A DNA stretch of 64,000 nt, taken from positions 9,356 through 73,355 of the forward strand of contig JAPLEB010000105.1 in NCBI GenBank assembly GCA_026391555.1, in the 5' to 3' direction. This stretch comes from Bacteroidia bacterium. GTDB lineage: Bacteria; Bacteroidota; Bacteroidia; Bacteroidales; VadinHA17. Positions within the stretch are counted from its first letter, which is position 1; each line of letters begins with the position of its first letter. The position numbers and the translations under genes are program-made. Shown here piece after piece: positions 12,137 through 59,052 of this stretch. The notes under the pieces are model-generated. The model was given only the letters and a program-made list of their open reading frames with translations. It made no database searches and was not told the DNA's origin.

Positions 12137-12154
12137 AATTCGGAATATATTAAG

Positions 12155-12214
12155 TTACAGATTACAGATTACAGATTACAGATTACAGATTACAGATTAC
12201 TACCTACTACCTGC
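12155..12214. repeat. Heptamer tandem repeat: (TTACAGA/GATTACA) x6 followed by tacctac/tacctgc units
   Basis: Read directly: ttacaga x6 from 12155 to 12196, then ttac tacctac tacctgc. It lies in the 88-nt spacer between the Gfo/Idh/MocA stop (12225) and the gntP-like start (12136). Confidence 0.95.
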
Positions 12215-21686: not shown

Positions 21687-22298
21687 TTACTTTATCAGAC
21701 TAAGCCCCTCTTTTGCACTGGCATCCCCGGGGGAGTAAAGTAAAGCCTTATTAAAAAGAATTTTTGCTTCACGGGTTTTCCCTAACCTAAAGTTAGACCA
21801 TGCCAGCATAAGCACACTCTGATAATCGAAGGGATACAGGTTAACAACCTTTTCGAACTGCTGATATGCCAGCTTGTAATCCTTCTTATCGTATGAGATA
21901 AGTCCCATACGGTAAAGAGCTACCGTGTTGTTGGGATCAATAGTAAGTATTTTATTATACTGTTCTATAACTATATCCCAGTTACCAAGAGAAGAGGCAG
22001 GTAAAACTGCTCCAAGTCGGGGTTCAATAGCATAAGGCATCAAATCTATAGCCTTATTATAGTAGCCCAACGATTCGGAGAACTGCCCCTGAAGGTAGGT
22101 TAGCCATCCCAACCGGAGGTTAATCTCATAAGAATTAGCATCATAATATGCCTTAAGTGATGCTGAAGCATCGGCATACTTCTCCAGTTTTTCCTTCGCG
22201 TAACTATCGCTGAATGCTGCAGTTAGCTTCGTATAGTCCTGCGCTTTTGATAATAAAACCGTAAAAATAAAAATTGTAATTAATGTAATTCTTTTCAT
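21687..22298 (-). CDS. Secreted TPR-repeat protein
   Basis: Signal peptide MKRITLITIFIFTVLLSKAQ followed by TPR-like A..Y...G....A...Y.KAL..(D)P repeats throughout. Confidence 0.75.
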   Translation of the reverse strand: MKRITLITIFIFTVLLSKAQDYTKLTAAFSDSYAKEKLEKYADASASLKAYYDANSYEINLRLGWLTYLQGQFSESLGYYNKAIDLMPYAIEPRLGAVLPASSLGNWDIVIEQYNKILTIDPNNTVALYRMGLISYDKKDYKLAYQQFEKVVNLYPFDYQSVLMLAWSNFRLGKTREAKILFNKALLYSPGDASAKEGLSLIK

Positions 22299-22300
22299 GA

Positions 22301-23548
22301 TTATTTGATTTTGCAGGTTAATTTAAATGCGACTCCAAATGAATTAATATTCAGTTTATTAGTTCTTAAATAGGAATTGAGATTCCATGAGTAAATTTGA
22401 TTTTTACAATAGTATGGCGATATTGTAATGCTGAATTTTTTGTCAGGCAAAAGGATAATATTGCTGTAAATAGTTGTTTCCGGTATCTGGAATGAATTAT
22501 TTATCATATATCCCTGATTTCTTGCATATAGAAATGAGTTACCTTTAATTATGCCTGATTCCAGCCAGATCGACTTAGAAATCTTAAATCCTATCTCCTG
22601 ATTAATCTGATAAGTTCCCCCCCAGTACTTATCGCTCTGATACATTCCGCCTGATGTAAAATACAGATTTAGGTTCGCGAATGGCAGGTATGTTAAATAT
22701 CCTTCACCCCTTATCTGGTTTGAATTACTGAAATTGCTAAACGATAAGTTTGCTCCGGTTCGTATCTTCCACCCGTTTTTCGCAATTCCCAAACCACCCA
22801 GGTATTCGATGTTTGTTTGTGTCTGAGTAGTAACATAAGGATAAAATGCAACATGACCAAACCCGGAAAACTCCCAACCAGGGAAAATATAACCATTAAG
22901 TTTGGCATACAGCTGATGTTGGGTGAAGTTAAGACCTATTCCTGAAGTATCTGAAACAGAGTAAACTGTTCCTGTTTTGTGATAGTTTGTATAGGCAAAA
23001 GTTCCCTTGAATCTGGCTGAAAAATAACTTTCAAAACCGGCATTGAAACTTAAACTGCTTTTTACTGCTTCGTAGTATAAGTTATTGGTTTTATAAAGAG
23101 TTACATCGGAGCCCGAAGCAGAGGAACCTGCATAAACAGATGATAACCCTGGTTTGCCTATTGATTTAAGAATATTGTTTTTTTTGTACTTTGGTACAGA
23201 TTCAAGGTATAGATAAGCATCGGCTTTTCTTCCTGAAAAAAGATAGCTAAAGTAAATATACTCTCTTGAAATTGTATCTATTGAATTAAATTCCATTGCT
23301 CGTGTAAAATTTTTCAAAATACTGGAATAGAGTTGTTTATTATATGCAAGTATTCCCAGTCGCATACGCAGGTAATAGTAATCCATTCCGTGAGACAGCA
23401 TCGTGTCTGCTGTATTTTTCAGGTTCTTATAATCACCCTTTATGTAGTAATTATATGTTTGCTGATCGAGTGTCTTAAAATCGCTTTGAGCAGACAAATT
23501 TACTGAAAAGACCAGCAGAAGGGCTGTTATATTTAATAAGATTCGCAT
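22301..23548 (-). CDS. Secreted protein with an N-terminal TPR-like region and a putative outer-membrane beta-barrel
   Basis: Signal peptide MRILLNITALLLVFSVNLSAQ. The C-terminal ~280 aa has alternating aromatic/polar beta-strand patterning (FESYFSARFKGTFAYTNY, GWEFSGFGHVAFYPY, LNLYFTSGGMYQS). The barrel call is inference only. Confidence 0.45.
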   Translation of the reverse strand: MRILLNITALLLVFSVNLSAQSDFKTLDQQTYNYYIKGDYKNLKNTADTMLSHGMDYYYLRMRLGILAYNKQLYSSILKNFTRAMEFNSIDTISREYIYFSYLFSGRKADAYLYLESVPKYKKNNILKSIGKPGLSSVYAGSSASGSDVTLYKTNNLYYEAVKSSLSFNAGFESYFSARFKGTFAYTNYHKTGTVYSVSDTSGIGLNFTQHQLYAKLNGYIFPGWEFSGFGHVAFYPYVTTQTQTNIEYLGGLGIAKNGWKIRTGANLSFSNFSNSNQIRGEGYLTYLPFANLNLYFTSGGMYQSDKYWGGTYQINQEIGFKISKSIWLESGIIKGNSFLYARNQGYMINNSFQIPETTIYSNIILLPDKKFSITISPYYCKNQIYSWNLNSYLRTNKLNINSFGVAFKLTCKIK

Positions 23549-25710
23549 GTGGCTTCTAAATTCAAACTTTCATTTTCAAATTTCAAACTATTGTCGCTGT
23601 TCACCACGAGTTTAAATTCCCTGGCCCAAACCTGCCGGCTGAAAGAGTAGCCGGTAAGTTTTGTATAATACTCAAAGCTATCCACATCAAACTCTGATCC
23701 TATCATTTTCATCCTGACACTTGAATCTGATTTTAAGTACATGAAAAAGGGTGCTGTAATATCGTGCAGAAAGAGCCTCCATCCGGCAAATGTACGGTTT
23801 ACAGGTAAAGAATCTGTTGAGACATAACCATCAATATATAAAAGAGGAACTCTGAACGCCGCCAGATAAAAATAGTACAGCAACGATTTCCGGTCTCCGT
23901 CAAAATGGGTGAAACAGAAGTGAACACCATCGTACCGGAAGTTGGCAATTGATTTTGTATCATGACAGAATATATAGGATCTGTTATAAATATTGGTAAA
24001 GACCTCCCAGGTAATTTTATCTGTACCTTTTGAAGTTTTGACGTTCCAGTTCAGTTTTGTGCCAGGCATCAGATTGAACGTTATTTTAAGAATCAAATTT
24101 TCTTCAATGGGTTTCACACTCTGTCCTTTGGATGGATAGCTGAACGTTCTGAGTTCTTTCCCATTTTCTAAATACGCAAAAAGCGGGTATTTTAATGTTT
24201 TTGAACCAATATAAGGTGTTGTTTGAAGCTGAAAATGAAGGTGTGGGTATGGGGAGCGTCCGGAATTTCCAACCTTTGCTATGACCTGGCCATAATGGAC
24301 ATTATCGCCTGTTTTCACTGAAACCGATCCTTTCTGAAGATGACTAAGTTTTGAGTATAATCCTTCGGCATGTTTGATTATCACAGTATTTCCCCAGTTT
24401 TTAAATGTGTTAACATCTCCAATCTTATTATCGTCGATTCCATCCTCGGAAACAACTACTGATCCATCGGCTGGTGCAACTACATTCTGACCAAAACAGT
24501 AATAGTCCTTCAGGTTGTTTCCATTATCGTTATATTGAGCCAAATCTCTGTTGATAATTACAAAATCCCAGGCATTGGACCACTCGCCTTTGTGAGTGTA
24601 CTCACCGTTATGGCCCTGGCTGACATGCCACTCTCCAAAGAAAGGAAGTTTAATCTGCAACCAGCCAAAGTTCGGGAAACGTTTTGTAAAACTCTGGTAA
24701 GAGTATAGATTGCGCTCCGGTGTGCCCTCCTGAATTTGCACTTCCTTAAACTGACTCTGCACCGTTCTAAACCTTAACGAGTATATGAAAGTCAATATTA
24801 TTATGTTAAAAGGAAGCGATAGCAAAGTCAGATTAAAAGGTTTAAGCAAAACAAACAGACCTGCCGAAACTAAGGCTATAATAGGTGTAATGGCAAATGC
24901 CCAGAAGAACGACTGTTTAGATGGAATATAGAAATACCCGCCGATAGCAATGGCTCCTAAAATGAAATTAAATCCAATATAGTTATAACCCAACCGGGTC
25001 AGGTCCATACCAAAAAAGGAGTAAGCCAGCCAGGCAACGCTAAAACCCAGCAACGAAAGCATAAAAGCGATCCTGGAATAGAAAATCAATGCGACTGCTA
25101 CAACAAATCCCGCGAAAACATTAAACTGAAAGAATATTGCACCCAGGGAAAGAAAGTAGCTGTTTACAAAGTTGGATGTAATCTTCCCAACTAACCATTG
25201 ATGCAGATTTACAAGAGGATGTCCGCCAATAATAAAGAGTTTATTGAGAACATAAACCCCGCTTTGATTATCTTCCGTTCCGCTTAGCATCCCTCCGGCG
25301 CTTAAGACAATCCAGATACTTATAACGAATGGAATCGAGAGATATGGAAGGTAGTATTTGCCTAAAATACCCTGGAAAGTAATTGTGATTAAAAGGGTTA
25401 AAAACCCTGATAATATTGCTATTACAACGATTACAAAGGTTAATTCATAATAGTACCCTAACCCAAGTCCCACCAGAAGACTATTGAAACCGTAAAACCC
25501 TTTCGTTGTAGGTAATTTATCAAACTTCAATAACGAAGCAGTGATGTTTGCGGTCAGTACTGAAAGCAACCCGGCAAAACCGGCAGAAATATCGAGGAAG
25601 GAAACTATAACCAGGGGAATGGCAAACCAATAGCTCTCCGAGAAGAATATCTGGGAGTAGCTTCTTAATACTCCCTGGAAGAAAGTGGATATTGTGGCGT
25701 TTTTTAACAT
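23533..25710 (-). CDS. Fusion protein: urea-transporter (UT)-fold polytopic membrane domain + M23 metallopeptidase domain + ~200-aa C-terminal domain of unknown function
   Basis: N-terminal LRSYSQIFF...GFYGFNSLLVGLGLG and about 10 TM segments (UT-family-like). The central part carries M23 motifs: HKGEWSNAWDF (HxxxD region) and GNSGRSPYPHLHFQLQ (HxH). Confidence 0.75.
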   Translation of the reverse strand: MLKNATISTFFQGVLRSYSQIFFSESYWFAIPLVIVSFLDISAGFAGLLSVLTANITASLLKFDKLPTTKGFYGFNSLLVGLGLGYYYELTFVIVVIAILSGFLTLLITITFQGILGKYYLPYLSIPFVISIWIVLSAGGMLSGTEDNQSGVYVLNKLFIIGGHPLVNLHQWLVGKITSNFVNSYFLSLGAIFFQFNVFAGFVVAVALIFYSRIAFMLSLLGFSVAWLAYSFFGMDLTRLGYNYIGFNFILGAIAIGGYFYIPSKQSFFWAFAITPIIALVSAGLFVLLKPFNLTLLSLPFNIIILTFIYSLRFRTVQSQFKEVQIQEGTPERNLYSYQSFTKRFPNFGWLQIKLPFFGEWHVSQGHNGEYTHKGEWSNAWDFVIINRDLAQYNDNGNNLKDYYCFGQNVVAPADGSVVVSEDGIDDNKIGDVNTFKNWGNTVIIKHAEGLYSKLSHLQKGSVSVKTGDNVHYGQVIAKVGNSGRSPYPHLHFQLQTTPYIGSKTLKYPLFAYLENGKELRTFSYPSKGQSVKPIEENLILKITFNLMPGTKLNWNVKTSKGTDKITWEVFTNIYNRSYIFCHDTKSIANFRYDGVHFCFTHFDGDRKSLLYYFYLAAFRVPLLYIDGYVSTDSLPVNRTFAGWRLFLHDITAPFFMYLKSDSSVRMKMIGSEFDVDSFEYYTKLTGYSFSRQVWAREFKLVVNSDNSLKFENESLNLEATCESY

Positions 25711-25722
25711 TAATTGGGGGAT

Positions 25723-25785
25723 GTTTCGTGTTTCGTGTTTCGGGTTTCGATTTGACTTTTATCTTTTTACATTTGTCTTTTGTCT
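25723..25785. repeat. Nine-unit heptamer-periodic tract filling an intercistronic gap
   Basis: gtttcgt gtttcgt gtttcgg gtttcga tttgact tttatct ttttaca tttgtct tttgtct, read in phase. It lies between the decarboxylase stop (25786) and the UT/M23 start (25710). Confidence 0.9.
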
Positions 25786-27162
25786 TCAACCCAGGTACTC
25801 CGGTATTACCTCATTAGCTGATATATTTTCAAGTGTTTCAGCACGCCTGATTACATGAACCTCCCTGTTCTGATCTATTAAAACAACATTTGGCCGGGTG
25901 GTTATAAACTGCAGCCACTGGGTGTTATTGTAAGCTCCTGTTCTGGTTATTACAAACCTGTCGCCACGTTTCAATGCAGGGAACATAAGCGAAGGTCTGA
26001 TAACATCTATATTCATACAAAGCGGACCAAAGATTGTTGTCTCCTCAACCAAACCAGAATGAATGCTAACGGGGTGAATTTTATGATCGTACCAGAATGA
26101 TGTAAAAAGCAGATTCACACCAACATCAACAATGGTTGCTCTGTGACCATCCGAAAGATGTTTATTTGCAAGCACAGAACCAGCAATGTACCCTGCGTTA
26201 TCTATTAGCGCACGTCCGGTTTCCAGTATTAATGTCGGCAGTTTATCGGGTTTAATCTGAGAATTGATAATTGCTGATGTTATAGCCTCTGCGTATTCAT
26301 CGAACGAAGGAGTTGTATCCTCACCCGAAAGGTAGGCTCCCCTCAGAGTATTCTTCGATGCAAATCCTCCGCCCATATCGATATATGAAATATGATGATC
26401 AAATTTCTGAGCTATATTGTAAGTCAGATCAGCAAGCTTTGTAGCCGCGACCCGGTAAGCATCAACACTCATTATATAGGTACCTATATGAGTATGTAAA
26501 CCCATTAGTTTTAGTTTTGGGTTCATCATAATGCGATTTATTGCATCCCATGCTTCACCGTTCTCGTAGTTTAATCCGAACCTGTCCCATTTGGGATAAA
26601 TTCCAATATCCATATTTACCCTGACGGCTACCCTGGCCTCAATATTTTTTCTCTGACAGACATCCGATAACATGAACAGCTCATCTATATGATCGATGTG
26701 AATGAACGATCCATTCCTTACGGCTTTCTCCAGATCATTAATACTTTTACCCGGTCCGTTAAAAATAATATTTTCTCCTTTTACACCATTCCCGATCGCT
26801 TTATCGTACTCAAAACCCGATACAACCTCGGCCCACGATCCTTCCTGATGGAAAATCCGGCAGATGGAATCTAAATAATTGGTTTTGTAACTCCATGCCA
26901 TCTGGACTTTTTGATATCTGAGGTTGAATGCTCTTTTGATATCCTCCATCCCTTTTCTAATTGTCCGTTCAGAAAAAACATAAAGAGGTGATCCATATTT
27001 GTCAAGGAGATCATCTACCTTAACTCCGTCTATAAAAGGCAATGGGGCAACTACCGTTCCAACCCCATGCTTCGATGGAACACCCGGATTTAAACGGGTT
27101 ATTGTTGGTCTTTCGAACATTAATTTTGACATGATATTGTGTTTATTATTTTCGTTCTGCAA
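25786..27162 (-). CDS. Fold-type III PLP-dependent decarboxylase (Orn/DAP/Arg decarboxylase family, DAP-decarboxylase-like)
   Basis: PLP-lysine motif WSYKTNY, glycine loop IDMGGGF, active-site GPLCMNID, and HTHIGT. Confidence 0.85.
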   Translation of the reverse strand: MQNENNKHNIMSKLMFERPTITRLNPGVPSKHGVGTVVAPLPFIDGVKVDDLLDKYGSPLYVFSERTIRKGMEDIKRAFNLRYQKVQMAWSYKTNYLDSICRIFHQEGSWAEVVSGFEYDKAIGNGVKGENIIFNGPGKSINDLEKAVRNGSFIHIDHIDELFMLSDVCQRKNIEARVAVRVNMDIGIYPKWDRFGLNYENGEAWDAINRIMMNPKLKLMGLHTHIGTYIMSVDAYRVAATKLADLTYNIAQKFDHHISYIDMGGGFASKNTLRGAYLSGEDTTPSFDEYAEAITSAIINSQIKPDKLPTLILETGRALIDNAGYIAGSVLANKHLSDGHRATIVDVGVNLLFTSFWYDHKIHPVSIHSGLVEETTIFGPLCMNIDVIRPSLMFPALKRGDRFVITRTGAYNNTQWLQFITTRPNVVLIDQNREVHVIRRAETLENISANEVIPEYLG

Positions 27163-27175
27163 TTTTCAAACTCTT

Positions 27176-28222
27176 CTATAGCTCCCCTGAAGTGGTTAGC
27201 CTGGAGAAAAGTTCCAGGTCCACAATCATATCGTAGGAGTACCTCACAAACATTTTACCCACATCGTAACGGGTGAAGGGTTTCACTTCCAGACCCAATG
27301 TCAGCTTCAGCAGTGCTTCAGGAATATTCTGACCGGCGCCAACTGCCAGATAAACCCATGCAGGAATTCTCGGGTTAATTTCAAGGAGGTAAAGTTTATT
27401 GTCATCTGATCTTATAAGTTCCAGCTCCATTCCCCCTTTCCATTTTGTTTGTGATATTATCTTTTTTGCCAGATCAAGTAAAGTGTGATCTTCAATAGTT
27501 ATGCCTCCCCATGCCTTACCCTTATCGGTAATGTATTGTTTACGCATTGGTACTGCTGCTATCAGATTGCCTTTCCCATCACCAAGTGCAATAACATTCA
27601 CCTCGGTTCCCCTGATATATTCCTGAACAATAACGGGAAGGCCCCATTTAGCTGTCATCTTTGAGAAGTAGATTGCTGCTTGTTCCACTGAGTGAGCAGC
27701 ATAAGCATCGTAGTATTTCCCCTTTATCATCACCGGATAGTTCATCGATTTAAGGGTATTATTTAAATCAGATACGCTAAAAACCTCAGTACCGGAAGGG
27801 ACATTAACACCATATTTTTTCCCGTAAGCAGGAAGATTTGATTTATTTCTCTCATCAAACTGTTCCATTGTAGGCAGATAGGTTTTTATCCCGATTCCCT
27901 CAAGCCTTTTTTCAAGTTTTATAAATGAAAAGAGCTCAGCATCAAAATTCGGGATAATAACATCTAACTTCTCTTTATGGTGTATTTCCAATAATCTATT
28001 GAATAAAGCGTCCTTCCCTTCCGCCGGGTAAGGAATCATATATGTTTTATCAACCAGGTCGCTCATGTAAATACCAGGTTCAAGATGCTCGTATGCCAAT
28101 CCGATTATCCTGACGTCGAAATCCTTTGATTCACGAATTCCGCGTATCACAGGAATCCCCGGACCCGGGCTGTCAATGTTGTTAAGACCCGTTACTGCAA
28201 CCGTTACTTTCTGAGGGTTCAT
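27176..28222 (-). CDS. ATP-grasp ligase
   Basis: Pre-ATP-grasp N-domain, then YPVMIKGKYYDAY, VIVQEYIRGTEVNV and MELELIRSDDNKLYLLEINPRIP (the ATP-grasp E..N Mg-binding block). Confidence 0.8.
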   Translation of the reverse strand: MNPQKVTVAVTGLNNIDSPGPGIPVIRGIRESKDFDVRIIGLAYEHLEPGIYMSDLVDKTYMIPYPAEGKDALFNRLLEIHHKEKLDVIIPNFDAELFSFIKLEKRLEGIGIKTYLPTMEQFDERNKSNLPAYGKKYGVNVPSGTEVFSVSDLNNTLKSMNYPVMIKGKYYDAYAAHSVEQAAIYFSKMTAKWGLPVIVQEYIRGTEVNVIALGDGKGNLIAAVPMRKQYITDKGKAWGGITIEDHTLLDLAKKIISQTKWKGGMELELIRSDDNKLYLLEINPRIPAWVYLAVGAGQNIPEALLKLTLGLEVKPFTRYDVGKMFVRYSYDMIVDLELFSRLTTSGEL

Positions 28223-28224
28223 TT

Positions 28225-28467
28225 TTATTCCTCCAGTAGATTATTTACACTAAGGTCATTCACAAAATCGGACAGATATCTTTCCAGTGAAATTTTATCC
28301 ACATCGTATTTTCCCAGCAACAAATCGGTTATCTGACTAATATTTTTCCCTTCTTTAATCAGCATAAGTACCTCTTTACCGATATTATTCAATGTAAATG
28401 AGTCGCCTGTAGAGGGGTTAAAAACGAATCCGTTTTCACTGAGCGCTATGTTTCCTTTAATAAGCAT
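28225..28467 (-). CDS. PqqD-family small protein (peptide-binding RRE-like)
   Basis: 80 aa: ...GFVFNPSTGDSFTLNNIGKEVLMLIKEGKNISQITDLLLGKYDVDKISLERYLSDFVNDLSVNNLL fits the PqqD pattern (x-LN-x-G-x-I-W/L...tv.eI...L...Y.vd...l..Dv..Fl..L...gL). Its stop is 2 nt from the ATP-grasp start. Confidence 0.75.
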   Translation of the reverse strand: MLIKGNIALSENGFVFNPSTGDSFTLNNIGKEVLMLIKEGKNISQITDLLLGKYDVDKISLERYLSDFVNDLSVNNLLEE

Positions 28468-28742
28468 AAAAGTATTTTTATGTTTTTATTATCGTTCAAA
28501 ATTTAACTTTAATAATAATCTGAACAAACGTAGTCCCAAATAAAATCTTACACAAAACTAATCAACGAATTGGGAGGTTGTGTATGTATAACCGGGGTTT
28601 TTATCAGTAGAAAGATAACCCATCACAACCTGTCCGCAGGGAGAAGTTCTCAAAACCAACGGAACAAGGTAATACAGTAAGATCAAAGAATTTGATAAGA
28701 CGATAAAATTTTTTTGTTATAAAACATATAATCACGAATAAC

Positions 28743-34096: not shown

Positions 34097-34134
34097 GCTG
34101 ATAGATTGAGTTGCTAAGATAATTATAATAGAAT

Positions 34135-34185
34135 ATAAAAGATAAAAGACAAAAGTAAAAAGTTGAAAAAGTCTAAAGTTTAGAG
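34135..34185. repeat. Heptamer-periodic A-rich tract, the reverse complement of the CTTTTAT-type units
   Basis: G recurs at 34141, 34148, 34155, 34162, 34171 and 34178 (spacing 7,7,7,9,7): ataaaag ataaaag acaaaag taaaaag ttgaaaaag tctaaag. Confidence 0.7.
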
Positions 34186-48783: not shown

Positions 48784-48801
48784 TCTGAGAACTTGGAAAA
48801 A

Positions 48802-48871
48802 GGCGACAGGCGACAGGAATATTGGAAAGAGACAGGGTTTAATTTCTTCCTAATGCCTGTCGCCTGTTGCC
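48802..48871. repeat. Inverted heptamer-repeat hairpin (ggcgacaggcgacagg ... cctgtcgcctgttgcc) between convergent genes
   Basis: The arms at 48802-48817 and 48856-48871 are complementary with one mismatch, with a 38-nt loop. Each arm consists of two 7-nt units. Confidence 0.7.
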
Positions 48872-48872
48872 T

Positions 48873-49226
48873 TTATTTCGATCTATGCCTGATCAAACCT
48901 GTCAACATTGCACTGATATTATCACATATTTTTTCAAGCTCTTTGTACTTTTCAGATGAGATATATTCAATTTCCATTGAGATAACAAGTTGTGTCCTCA
49001 ACTCAGCAATCGAACCCCTGGCGATATAAAAATGTCTGATACTCTGCTTGTCAGTATCCAGATCATCGCCTTCAGCGATATTTGAAGATACAGATACAGA
49101 TGATCTTCTCATTTGATCTCTGAGTCCGAAATCTTTAATAAATAGACCCTGATCAGTAAGTCTGTAAATGTCAACCGCAAGATCTTTTGATTGTTGCCAA
49201 ACCTTTAAATCTTTATAATTTCCCAT
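48873..49226 (-). CDS. Four-helix-bundle protein (23S rRNA intervening-sequence protein family, TIGR02436-type)
   Basis: YKDLKVWQQSKDLAVDIYRLT...LRDQMRRSSVSVSSNIAEG...IARGSIAELRTQL. Confidence 0.85.
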   Translation of the reverse strand: MGNYKDLKVWQQSKDLAVDIYRLTDQGLFIKDFGLRDQMRRSSVSVSSNIAEGDDLDTDKQSIRHFYIARGSIAELRTQLVISMEIEYISSEKYKELEKICDNISAMLTGLIRHRSK

Positions 49227-49324
49227 AATGCAGCGTATTAAATAATGAAAGAAACCACATACAATTCCACATTGTAATATTTTTACAATTTAATAAATAT
49301 AAATCACTTATGCCGTCCCTGATG

Positions 49325-49359
49325 CCTGTCGCCCGTCGCCTGTAGCCTTTAATTTTAGT
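49325..49359. repeat. Heptamer tract: cctgtcg cccgtcg cctgtag cctttaa ttttagt
   Basis: Read in phase. Its first 19 nt are the inverted complement of 48802-48817 on the other side of the four-helix-bundle gene. Confidence 0.7.
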
Positions 49360-57925: not shown

Positions 57926-57948
57926 ACCTTTTTCTTTCTCTTCTTTTT

Positions 57949-58011
57949 CCTGTTGCCTGTCGCCTGTCTTTCTACTTTTATCTTTTTACTTTTATCTTTT
58001 ATCTTTAAAAT
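57949..58011. repeat. Nine-unit heptamer-periodic tract between pstS and pstC
   Basis: cctgttg cctgtcg cctgtct ttctact tttatct ttttact tttatct tttatct ttaaaat, read in phase. Confidence 0.9.
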
Positions 58012-59012: not shown

Positions 59013-59052
59013 TTGGATTCGCCTTTTGCCTTTTGTCTTGAACCTTGAACTT

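Follow-up and report, generated by a model that had tools for sequence, protein, structure and literature searches.

Heptanucleotides are the most abundant class of long simple sequence repeats (SSRs) in many prokaryotes, according to Mrazek (2007) as cited in PMC4679880 and PMC4692102, and the same two papers relate a proposal of polymerase slippage in which about 7 nt is the length of DNA contacting the polymerase. Three heptamers were described early in Calothrix, in work cited in PMC4692102. The arrays of GGGAATC in Xanthomonas and of GGGGAYT in Nostoc lie in intergenic DNA and differ among close relatives; some are inverted, and one separates pecE from pecF (PMC4692102). Arrays of TAACTGA have been reported from Beggiatoaceae, Cyanobacteria and five Bacteroidetes, where they lie mostly in forward orientation near start codons and are missing from relatives (PMC4679880). 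The present study concerns a tract of nine heptamers at positions 25723–25785 of a 64-kb stretch of DNA (the whole stretch analysed, referred to below as the window) from an uncultured Bacteroidia metagenome-assembled genome (MAG), where it separates a decarboxylase gene from the gene of a urea-transporter-like (UT)/peptidase M23 fusion protein. The tract is a heptanucleotide long SSR, with nine 7-nt units arranged head to tail, beyond chance; repeats of this kind are already known from Cyanobacteria, Xanthomonas, Beggiatoaceae and a few Bacteroidetes. It seems most probable (about 0.6 by our own estimate) that it is an orphan, slippage-resized heptamer SSR of the short tandemly repeated repetitive (STRR) type. 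It would be at most a passive A-rich linker, and would belong by sequence type to the 5′ arms of a repeat family that forms hairpins and brackets genes of four-helix-bundle proteins.

With the STRR, Xanthomonas and Nostoc heptamers the tract shares the intergenic 7-nt tandem units, a genome-specific dominant family, variation at the same site, occasional inverted arrays and an example inside an operon. It differs from them in that its units are of the A-rich AGACAAA and the GAAAC types, neither G-rich nor G-quadruplex-forming, in its host, an uncultured Bacteroidia MAG, and in the additional enrichment of period 8 in related Bacteroidota. The units AGACAAA, AGATAAA, AGTCAAA and NCGAAAC are presumably also unlike those of STRR1–3. 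Like the TAACTGA repeats (PMC4679880), the heptamers described here are intergenic, mostly forward, near start codons and found in Bacteroidetes, and the spacers of relatives are shorter and repeat-free; however, no TAACTGA-type array (TAACTGATAACTGA) was found in the window, and one related locus, L022, has a GATAACT array. The latter array (L022 9933–9993, a Bacteroidales MAG; four GATAACT units and variants) stops 4 nt short of the start of the decarboxylase gene, and its heptamer is the one known from Beggiatoaceae and Cyanobacteria.

At the contingency loci hmw1A and hmw2A of Haemophilus influenzae (PMC8262952, PMC12721329), a 7-nt SSR is also located 5′ of a gene and changes its copy number by slippage. 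Those loci are single and gene-specific, with demonstrated effects on expression, whereas the present arrays are genome-wide, lie in housekeeping operons and are missing in close relatives. The copy-number variation found at the tract is variation between genomes. In Coxiella burnetii, the intervening sequence (IVS) of the 23S rRNA contains three to four tandem GACAGAT units 5′ of the S23p open reading frame (ORF), in a copy number that varies between strains, and its inverted arms form a stem cut by RNase III (PMC4990558). The cassettes found in the present study encode the same protein family, PF05635, but they are located in mRNA operon spacers and not in rRNA, and the tract itself has neither an ORF nor a complementary arm.

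Repetitive extragenic palindromic (REP) sequences and bacterial interspersed mosaic elements (BIME) are imperfect palindromes of about 35 bp in enterobacterial operons, mobilised by REP-associated tyrosine transposases (RAYT). They colonise intercistronic and 3′ regions, and their hairpin forms can affect mRNA stability or termination. The present arrays are likewise short repeats colonising intercistronic regions, but the tract consists of tandem heptamers without a palindrome, and no RAYT, transposase or reverse transcriptase gene was found in the 64-kb window. A templated origin of the repeats by a reverse transcriptase or transposase thus finds no support there.

Sequence of the tract and its variation in relatives

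On the mRNA strand, the tract consists of the units AGACAAA, AGACAAA, TGTAAAA, AGATAAA and AGTCAAA (25785–25751), followed by TCGAAAC, CCGAAAC, ACGAAAC and ACGAAAC (25750–25723). Re-reading of the sequence agreed with an earlier sequence-only reading of this DNA as to the coordinates and the phase of the nine heptamers, and as to their position: the tract abuts the decarboxylase stop codon TGA (25788–25786) and ends 12 nt before the ATG of the UT-M23 gene (25710). The identity at lag 7 is 41/56 compared with 22.3 ± 2.9 in dinucleotide-preserving shuffles, none of which (0/20,000) matched it, and when the best of lags 4–12 was scored, 0/5,000 shuffles were as high. The degenerate A-rich half alone has an identity of 20/28, reached by 6 of 20,000 shuffles. 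Tandem Repeats Finder (TRF) reported two adjoining period-7 arrays, 25722–25749 (95% matches) and 25751–25786 (72% matches). The sequence-only reading had described neighbouring units as differing by one to three bases and drifting stepwise. In fact the in-phase differences are 0, 1, 1, 5, 2, 3, 3 and 0, and the step of five differences marks the junction of a GAAAC-type and an A-rich-type sub-array; the tract is thus two sub-arrays joined in phase, and drift from a single ancestral unit is not supported.

The spacer alone is predicted to fold with a minimum free energy (MFE) of −1.8 kcal/mol (z +0.07), and a stretch of 121 nt gives z +0.61. Neither an inverted repeat nor a complementary arm was found in 25650–25850, and there is no palindrome in the tract. 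The covariance models of Rfam gave no match at gathering thresholds in the whole window and none with E ≤ 1 for 25600–25900. The unit TGTAAAA makes a minimal AUG–UAA upstream ORF (25767–25772, minus strand) within the tract; the corresponding unit of L001 and L008 is AGTAAAA.

Related loci and sampled sequences compared with the window are denoted by L-numbers; spacer lengths were taken from 150 homologous operons. The length of the decarboxylase/UT-M23 spacer varies between 0 and 797 nt (median 34 nt), and 61 of the 150 spacers measure 20 nt or less. Orthologous arrays were found in L001 (92% decarboxylase identity), which has eight AGACAAA units compared with two in the window and one GAAAC unit fewer, and in L008 (86%), which has two AGACAAA units and lacks two of the GAAAC units, the GAAAC block being shorter than that of the window by 7 nt and 14 nt, respectively. 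Both have kept the degenerate interior units. The 12-nt leader ATCCCCCAATTA has a conserved counterpart in L001 (ATCCCCCAATAA) and a partly conserved one in L008 (ATCCTCTTATC). Such whole-unit differences in homogeneous blocks are the signature of slipped-strand gain and loss.

In about 12 sister genomes, orthologous arrays starting with AGAC or AGTC follow the decarboxylase stop codon directly and in the same phase. At this site, other close relatives carry different units, which mostly keep the phase set by the stop codon, or no repeat (variants are given in Table 1), and L081, the nearest sampled relative (93% decarboxylase identity), has no tract. In L082, L091–L093 and L097 the spacer contains a hairpin, in which AGACGGA and AGTCGGA units (also AGACAAA) are followed by a complementary CTTCGGT/CTTCGGA array; the predicted fold of the L093 hairpin spacer has z −2.1. 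In L002 (4490–4680) and L083 (5420–5600, both approximate), a GC-rich, hairpin-rich insertion resembling a miniature inverted-repeat transposable element is located between two different heptamer arrays of this spacer. Since the tract is missing from many close relatives and the spacer is hypervariable, the tract, as judged by this comparison, is not an essential element. Of the unstructured linker proposed in the sequence-only reading, the lack of structure agrees with the predicted fold, but a requirement for such a linker does not agree with its absence from many close relatives; beyond this lack of structure, the proposals of that reading on the function of the RNA find no support.

All genes around the tract are located on the minus strand, and the G+C content of the window is about 39%. 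The gene cluster 21687–28467 comprises a PqqD-like gene, an ATP-grasp gene, the pyridoxal phosphate (PLP)-dependent decarboxylase gene, the UT-M23 gene, an unknown gene and a tetratricopeptide repeat (TPR) gene, and from this composition it may make a small modified amino acid or peptide and export or process it. Of the 160 related loci, 150 have the decarboxylase and UT-M23 genes side by side; the loci belong to Bacteroidota and to MAGs labelled Chlorobiota, Rhodothermaceae and Balneolaceae. The decarboxylase probably starts with the ATG at 27132 and not with the TTG at 27162, because an NCBI protein (P0001, 'MAG: Bacteroidia bacterium') is 100% identical to the ATG-start product over 448 aa; the exact-protein look-up with the TTG-start ORF found no match, presumably because that start was wrong.

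A scan for sigma-70-type promoters and terminators found no site in the decarboxylase/UT-M23 spacer, and the 12-nt leader ATCCCCCAATTA (25711–25722) contains no Shine–Dalgarno sequence. A TAcaTTTG on the antisense strand (25768–25775) was considered as a promoter and rejected, because the upstream TTTG lies 13 nt away from it instead of about 19–21 nt; it is not among the consensus matches with a 17–23 nt spacer. The Bacteroidetes-type promoter consensus has six matches in the window compared with 3.7 expected, and for the match at 28525–28556 position is the sole argument. It is likely that the two genes are co-transcribed through the tract, since the spacer has no terminator-like or promoter-like site and this promoter consensus match precedes PqqD, with which the cluster begins, by 58 nt.

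Period 7 in the intergenic DNA of the window and related genomes

Averaged over all intergenic DNA, the autocorrelation rises only weakly at lag 7 because the arrays are few, and counts of exact runs were likewise too sparse. A windowed lag score, compared with shuffles, was used in place of both. By this score, the 9.1 kb of intergenic DNA in the window contain eight period-7 matches against 0.01 in shuffles, and no match was found in the 54.7 kb of coding DNA. The eight matches are spread over five intergenic gaps, with a weaker period-7 signal in two more; a signal (local lag-7 score of at least 15/21) is present in 7 of the 31 gaps of at least 35 nt. Among periods 4–16, matches were obtained at 7 and at its double, 14, alone.

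In 225 kb of intergenic DNA from about 80 (80–81) related Bacteroidota genomes, exact tandem duplications show a 3.5-fold excess at period 7 and a 4.5-fold excess at period 8, and are at chance level at periods 4–5; of 16 arrays with at least three exact copies, 10 have period 7. At the homologous locus of 80 representative genomes, the tandem arrays are mostly of period 7 (29) and period 8 (22). The sequence-only reading, which expected period 7 to exceed shuffled controls in intergenic DNA, is borne out in the 64-kb window and in the related genomes. The heptamer-specific process it placed on intercistronic spacers also finds support in the period-7 excess, the whole-unit differences and the spacer range of 0–797 nt, and comprises both gain and loss. 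Period-8 arrays are nearly as common as period-7 ones in some related genomes (L078, L079, L021, L005, L207). The A-rich sense orientation was found for 24 of 33 arrays compared with 64% of ordinary co-directional spacers, and as the difference is not significant (p = 0.37), it gives no evidence of selection for this orientation. AGNCRRA units are enriched among the arrays (10/53 against 1.85 expected), and the arrays of the window, L001, L008 and L009 have 14-mers in common.

The recurrence of tract units at 57977–57990, pointed out in the sequence-only reading, is genuine. The exact 16-mer ACTTTTATCTTTTTAC is common to the tract and the array of the PstS–PstC gap (57941–58009), and occurs within the window only in these two arrays. 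The PstS–PstC gap array joins A-rich AGATAAA units with CGACAGG units of the family found in the cassette arms discussed below. In this phosphate-uptake cluster (porin O/P, PstS, PstC), two consecutive intercistronic gaps hold heptamer arrays. The TTACAGA array, with a perfect run at 12155–12200, accounts for the greater part of the 88 nt that separate a GFO/IDH/MocA oxidoreductase gene from a GntP permease gene, and its unit family is unlike those of the other arrays of the window.

Table 1. Coordinates of the tract, its operon and the other repeat features, with variants of the same spacer in relatives
Feature	Position in the window	Strand	Details
Heptamer tract	25723..25785	-	nine in-phase units; period-7 arrays by TRF and lag-7 shuffles
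Non-repeat leader, 12 nt, ATCCCCCAATTA	25711..25722	-	directly 5′ of the UT-M23 start codon
PLP-dependent decarboxylase of ornithine/diaminopimelate/arginine type, upstream cistron, 448 aa	25786..27132	-	Pfam PF02784, PF00278
UT-like + peptidase M23 fusion, downstream cistron, 725 aa	23533..25710	-	Pfam PF03253, PF01551
PqqD gene, first of the cluster	28225..28467	-	
Match to the Bacteroidetes-type promoter consensus (TTTG-N20-TAcgTTTG)	28525..28556	-	58 nt 5′ of the PqqD gene
TTACAGA array (+ strand)	12150..12212	-	six complete units (6.6 by TRF), then TTACTAC, CTACTAC
A-rich array, unit family of the tract	34127..34164	+	AGATAAA, AGACAAA, AGTAAAA; divergent intergenic region
PstS–PstC gap array	57941..58009	-	mRNA: AGATAAA ×2, AGTAAAA, AGATAAA, AGTAGAA, AGACAGG, CGACAGG, CAACAGG
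Porin–PstS gap array	59021..59039	-	about 2.7 units; mRNA AAGACAAAAGGCAAAAGGC, with AGACAAA and AGGCAAA
PF05635/TIGR02436 four-helix-bundle gene, 117 aa	48873..49226	-	Pfam E 1.4e-35; TIGR02436 E 1.7e-34
Hairpin of AGGCGAC heptamers and their complement	48799..48874	.	inverted repeat, 22-nt arms, 91% complementary
Upstream arm array	49322..49350	-	gene strand: AGGCTAC, AGGCGAC, GGGCGAC, AGGC; inverted relative to the array 48799–48820
Relatives' spacer variant			(AGTCAGA)n, about 27 copies, breaks the assembly
Relatives' spacer variant			GTAAGAA ×6
Relatives' spacer variant			ATGCAAA/ACGCAAA units
Relatives' spacer variant			TTAGAGN arrays with a GC-rich insertion

Heptamer arrays around PF05635 genes

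The link of this repeat family with PF05635 genes and hairpin modules was overlooked in the sequence-only reading. The window encodes one protein of this family, named '23S rRNA intervening sequence protein' (S23p), which shows weak similarity to Avd, the accessory protein of diversity-generating retroelements (DGR). Its best match in PDB is the Xanthomonas pentamer 2GSC (E 1.6e-14), and it is 100% identical to an NCBI protein named 'MAG: Bacteroidia bacterium'. The hairpin at the 3′ end of the gene has a predicted MFE of −43.9 kcal/mol (z −7.9) and T or A runs at both ends. It is located just 3′ of both the four-helix-bundle gene and a GH106 gene, and looks like a bidirectional terminator in this prediction. 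In the orthologous cassettes L161–L196 a purine-rich array is always found about 95 nt 5′ of the ATG, with a complementary array after the stop, and the arms co-vary between lineages (AGGCGAC/GTCGCCT, AGGCGTC/GACGCCT, GGGCGCC/GGCGCCC). The cassette of the window (48870–49350) is inverted between its arrays relative to L191–L196, both flanks being collinear.

Only two other PF05635 genes were found in 1.9 Mb of related loci, and both are located within the decarboxylase/UT-M23 spacer. That of L085 (88% decarboxylase identity) consists of a hairpin, the PF05635 gene and a complementary array, and that of L152 (62%) of three GAAAAAT units, the gene and three ATTTTTC units; the two proteins are 21–28% identical to that of the window. 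The gene of L085 belongs to a second Bacteroidota lineage (L215–L231, L085; about 80% internal identity), whose members were found in different genomes in five different operon spacers: tsaE|ald, ftsA|ftsZ, wza|wzc, after cheBR and decarboxylase|UT-M23. The presence of such similar genes in five different operon spacers suggests that this lineage is mobile. Its genes invariably run in the direction of the host genes and lie within GGAAGNC/CTTCNGA arrays, which often form two F-loop-R hairpin modules, one of them with a predicted fold of −63.4 kcal/mol (z −8.4). Many homologues of this lineage are on very short contigs, as expected if assemblies break at the arrays.

To compare the flanks, 20 PF05635 genes (those of the window, L085 and L152 and 17 on plasmids) were scored over 140 nt on each side together with 1505 control genes. 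The sampling covered plasmids of Nostoc, Calothrix, Anabaena, Pseudanabaena, Geminocystis, Stanieria and Aulosira, a Riemerella plasmid and the 23S rRNA IVS of Azospirillum, which has GGACAGA/GGACGGA-type arms. Both flanks carry a period-7 array in 10 of the 20 genes (13 of 20 at a looser cut-off) and in 3/1505 controls (0.2%), and at least one flank does in 14 of 20 and in 6% of controls. In all the samples, which span Bacteroidota chromosomes, cyanobacterial plasmids and an alphaproteobacterial rRNA IVS, a setting within inverted heptamer arrays is far commoner for PF05635 genes than for controls. In 50 kb of the Nostoc punctiforme plasmid pNPUN01, five of the seven period-7 arrays adjoin its two four-helix-bundle genes. 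On the cyanobacterial plasmids (L197–L214), the four-helix-bundle genes are found between cas6 and cas4, between two ribonucleotide reductase subunit genes and between cas10 and cmr3; some adjoin integrase and XisH/XisI genes, and most have inverted heptamer arrays as flanks. Some of the cyanobacterial units, GAAGTCG of N. punctiforme and AGTCAGG of Aulosira, resemble those of Bacteroidota. In Gemmatirosa, period-8 arrays flank a PF05635 gene in direct orientation.

As for the tract itself, it resembles by sequence type the 5′ arm of the AGNCRRA F-loop-R modules, but has no partner arm and no gene: its two AGACAAA units and AGTCAAA fit the cassette-arm pattern AGNCRRA and the other six units do not. 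The three fitting units share their starting phase with the AGACGGA/AGTCGGA arms found in L082, L091 and L093. No PF05635 ORF was found in 25711–25785. In the Bacteroidota loci only about 5 of 53 arrays adjoin a PF05635 gene, and most are orphans. An HMM search that recovers all known positives found no PF05635 gene in 27 viral contigs (264 kb) chosen for GAAGTCGGAAGWCGGAAG arrays, and these PF05635-free contigs imply that arrays form, or are at least kept, where no such gene is present in cis. The contigs (IMG/VR, L232–L258) contain GAAGTCG-type arrays, and some are visibly G+C-rich; in L242, L247 and L251 several heptamer types abut in series, and a few of the viral arrays may lie in coding sequence. 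In the open-access literature searched, the Coxiella IVS (PMC4990558) is the only described link between an S23p-type four-helix-bundle gene and heptamers, and others may be published elsewhere.

Origin and meaning of the tract

According to the slippage explanation, slipped-strand mispairing during replication or repair would add and remove 7-nt units, and the degenerate interior units would stabilise the array as interruptions. Expansion would be limited only by selection on the upstream stop codon and on the translation-initiation region of about 12 nt downstream. Co-transcribed with both genes, the array would form a purine- and A-rich, structure-free linker of 63 nt on the mRNA, without a sequence-specific role. 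In Bacteroidia, translation initiation does not use Shine–Dalgarno pairing and is tuned by mRNA structure (PMC6847099), and for this reason an A-rich, structure-free linker should be at least harmless; being compatible with such initiation, it may mildly favour it. Several points weigh against this explanation. Slippage alone accounts neither for the preference for periods 7 and 8 nor for the same unit family at unlinked loci and across phyla. The junction with five differences means that the tract is not one simple decaying array, and the orientation bias of the arrays, not exceeding the background, gives no sign of selection. Besides, co-transcription and the linker role are inferred from sequence.

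It is rather unlikely that the tract is the footprint or solo arm of an IVS-like PF05635 cassette, or of its gene-less hairpin module, formerly seated in this spacer and since deprived of its 3′ arm and gene. Such an origin is suggested by the spacer itself, which in L085 and L152 contains a PF05635 gene between inverted heptamer arrays and in L082, L091–L093 and L097 contains gene-less F-loop-R hairpins with 5′ arms in phase with the units of the window, and by AGACAAA being a unit within true cassette arms in L229. The excess of period-7 arrays on both flanks of PF05635 genes (10/20, or 13/20 at the looser cut-off, against 3/1505), the five of seven pNPUN01 arrays beside such genes and the spread of one lineage over five operon spacers agree with it. 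However, no complementary arm or gene remnant is left in the spacer of the window (z +0.07 against −7.9 and −8.4 for true modules), most arrays are orphans (about 5/53 next to a PF05635 gene), and the result for the viral contigs (0/27 with PF05635 in 264 kb) lowered our estimate; besides, either the array or the cassette may have come first. Less probable still is that the heptamer copy number tunes UT-M23 expression or the uncoupling of the cistrons after the model of heptanucleotide contingency loci, either through spacer length or through binding in 7-nt register by a putative binder such as S1, Csp or a four-helix-bundle protein. Copy number does differ between close relatives, arrays frequently stop between a few and some tens of nucleotides short of a start codon, and there are precedents. 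TAACTGA arrays lie 5′ of start codons, with S1, Csp and CsrA as proposed binders and one Csp per heptamer (PMC4679880), and phase variation by a 7-nt SSR in Haemophilus involves the 5′ untranslated region and RNase III (PMC12721329). Against such tuning stand the absence of the tract from L081 and many other relatives, including the 61 of 150 spacers of at most 20 nt, the completely different units at the same site in relatives, the occurrence of such arrays in unrelated housekeeping operons (pst, ftsA–ftsZ, wza–wzc) and the background level of the orientation bias. Finally, the A-rich units keep one frame open (ORF 25520–25789, 89 aa, TTG start), which could point to cryptic coding sequence, and AT-rich intergenic DNA might produce repeats by chance or composition. 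The shuffle and comparative tests refute these readings and leave them next to no probability: none of the 20,000 shuffles reaches the periodicity of the tract, period 7 is the sole enriched period in the window, and the ORF runs, in a different frame, into the conserved start of UT-M23 and can have no conservation of its own, since the spacer is missing or different in relatives.

A wider hypothesis, which we consider doubtful, is that the STRR-type heptamer (and some octamer) arrays of Bacteroidota and Cyanobacteria are cis elements of widespread, horizontally moving IVS-like PF05635 cassettes and not generic slippage products. The cassettes would sit in transcribed spacers between inverted recombining arrays, the inversion of the window cassette relative to a close relative being the evidence cited for recombination, and orphans such as 25723–25785 would be solo arms or non-autonomous arrays maintained in trans. 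Arrays may attract cassettes, cassettes may seed arrays, or a trans factor may make both.

Taken by itself, the tract is an unremarkable case of a repeat class that is known but lacks a mechanistic explanation. As a case, it demonstrates that heptamer arrays can occupy an entire gap between cistrons of a conserved operon and can gain or lose complete units from one close relative to another. The part worth following is the association of heptamers with PF05635, the family to which the 23S rRNA IVS protein belongs and whose members are also homologous to Avd of the DGRs. If general, this link would join two old puzzles, why the repeats are heptamers and what the S23p/IVS elements are, and both would become testable in cultured strains.

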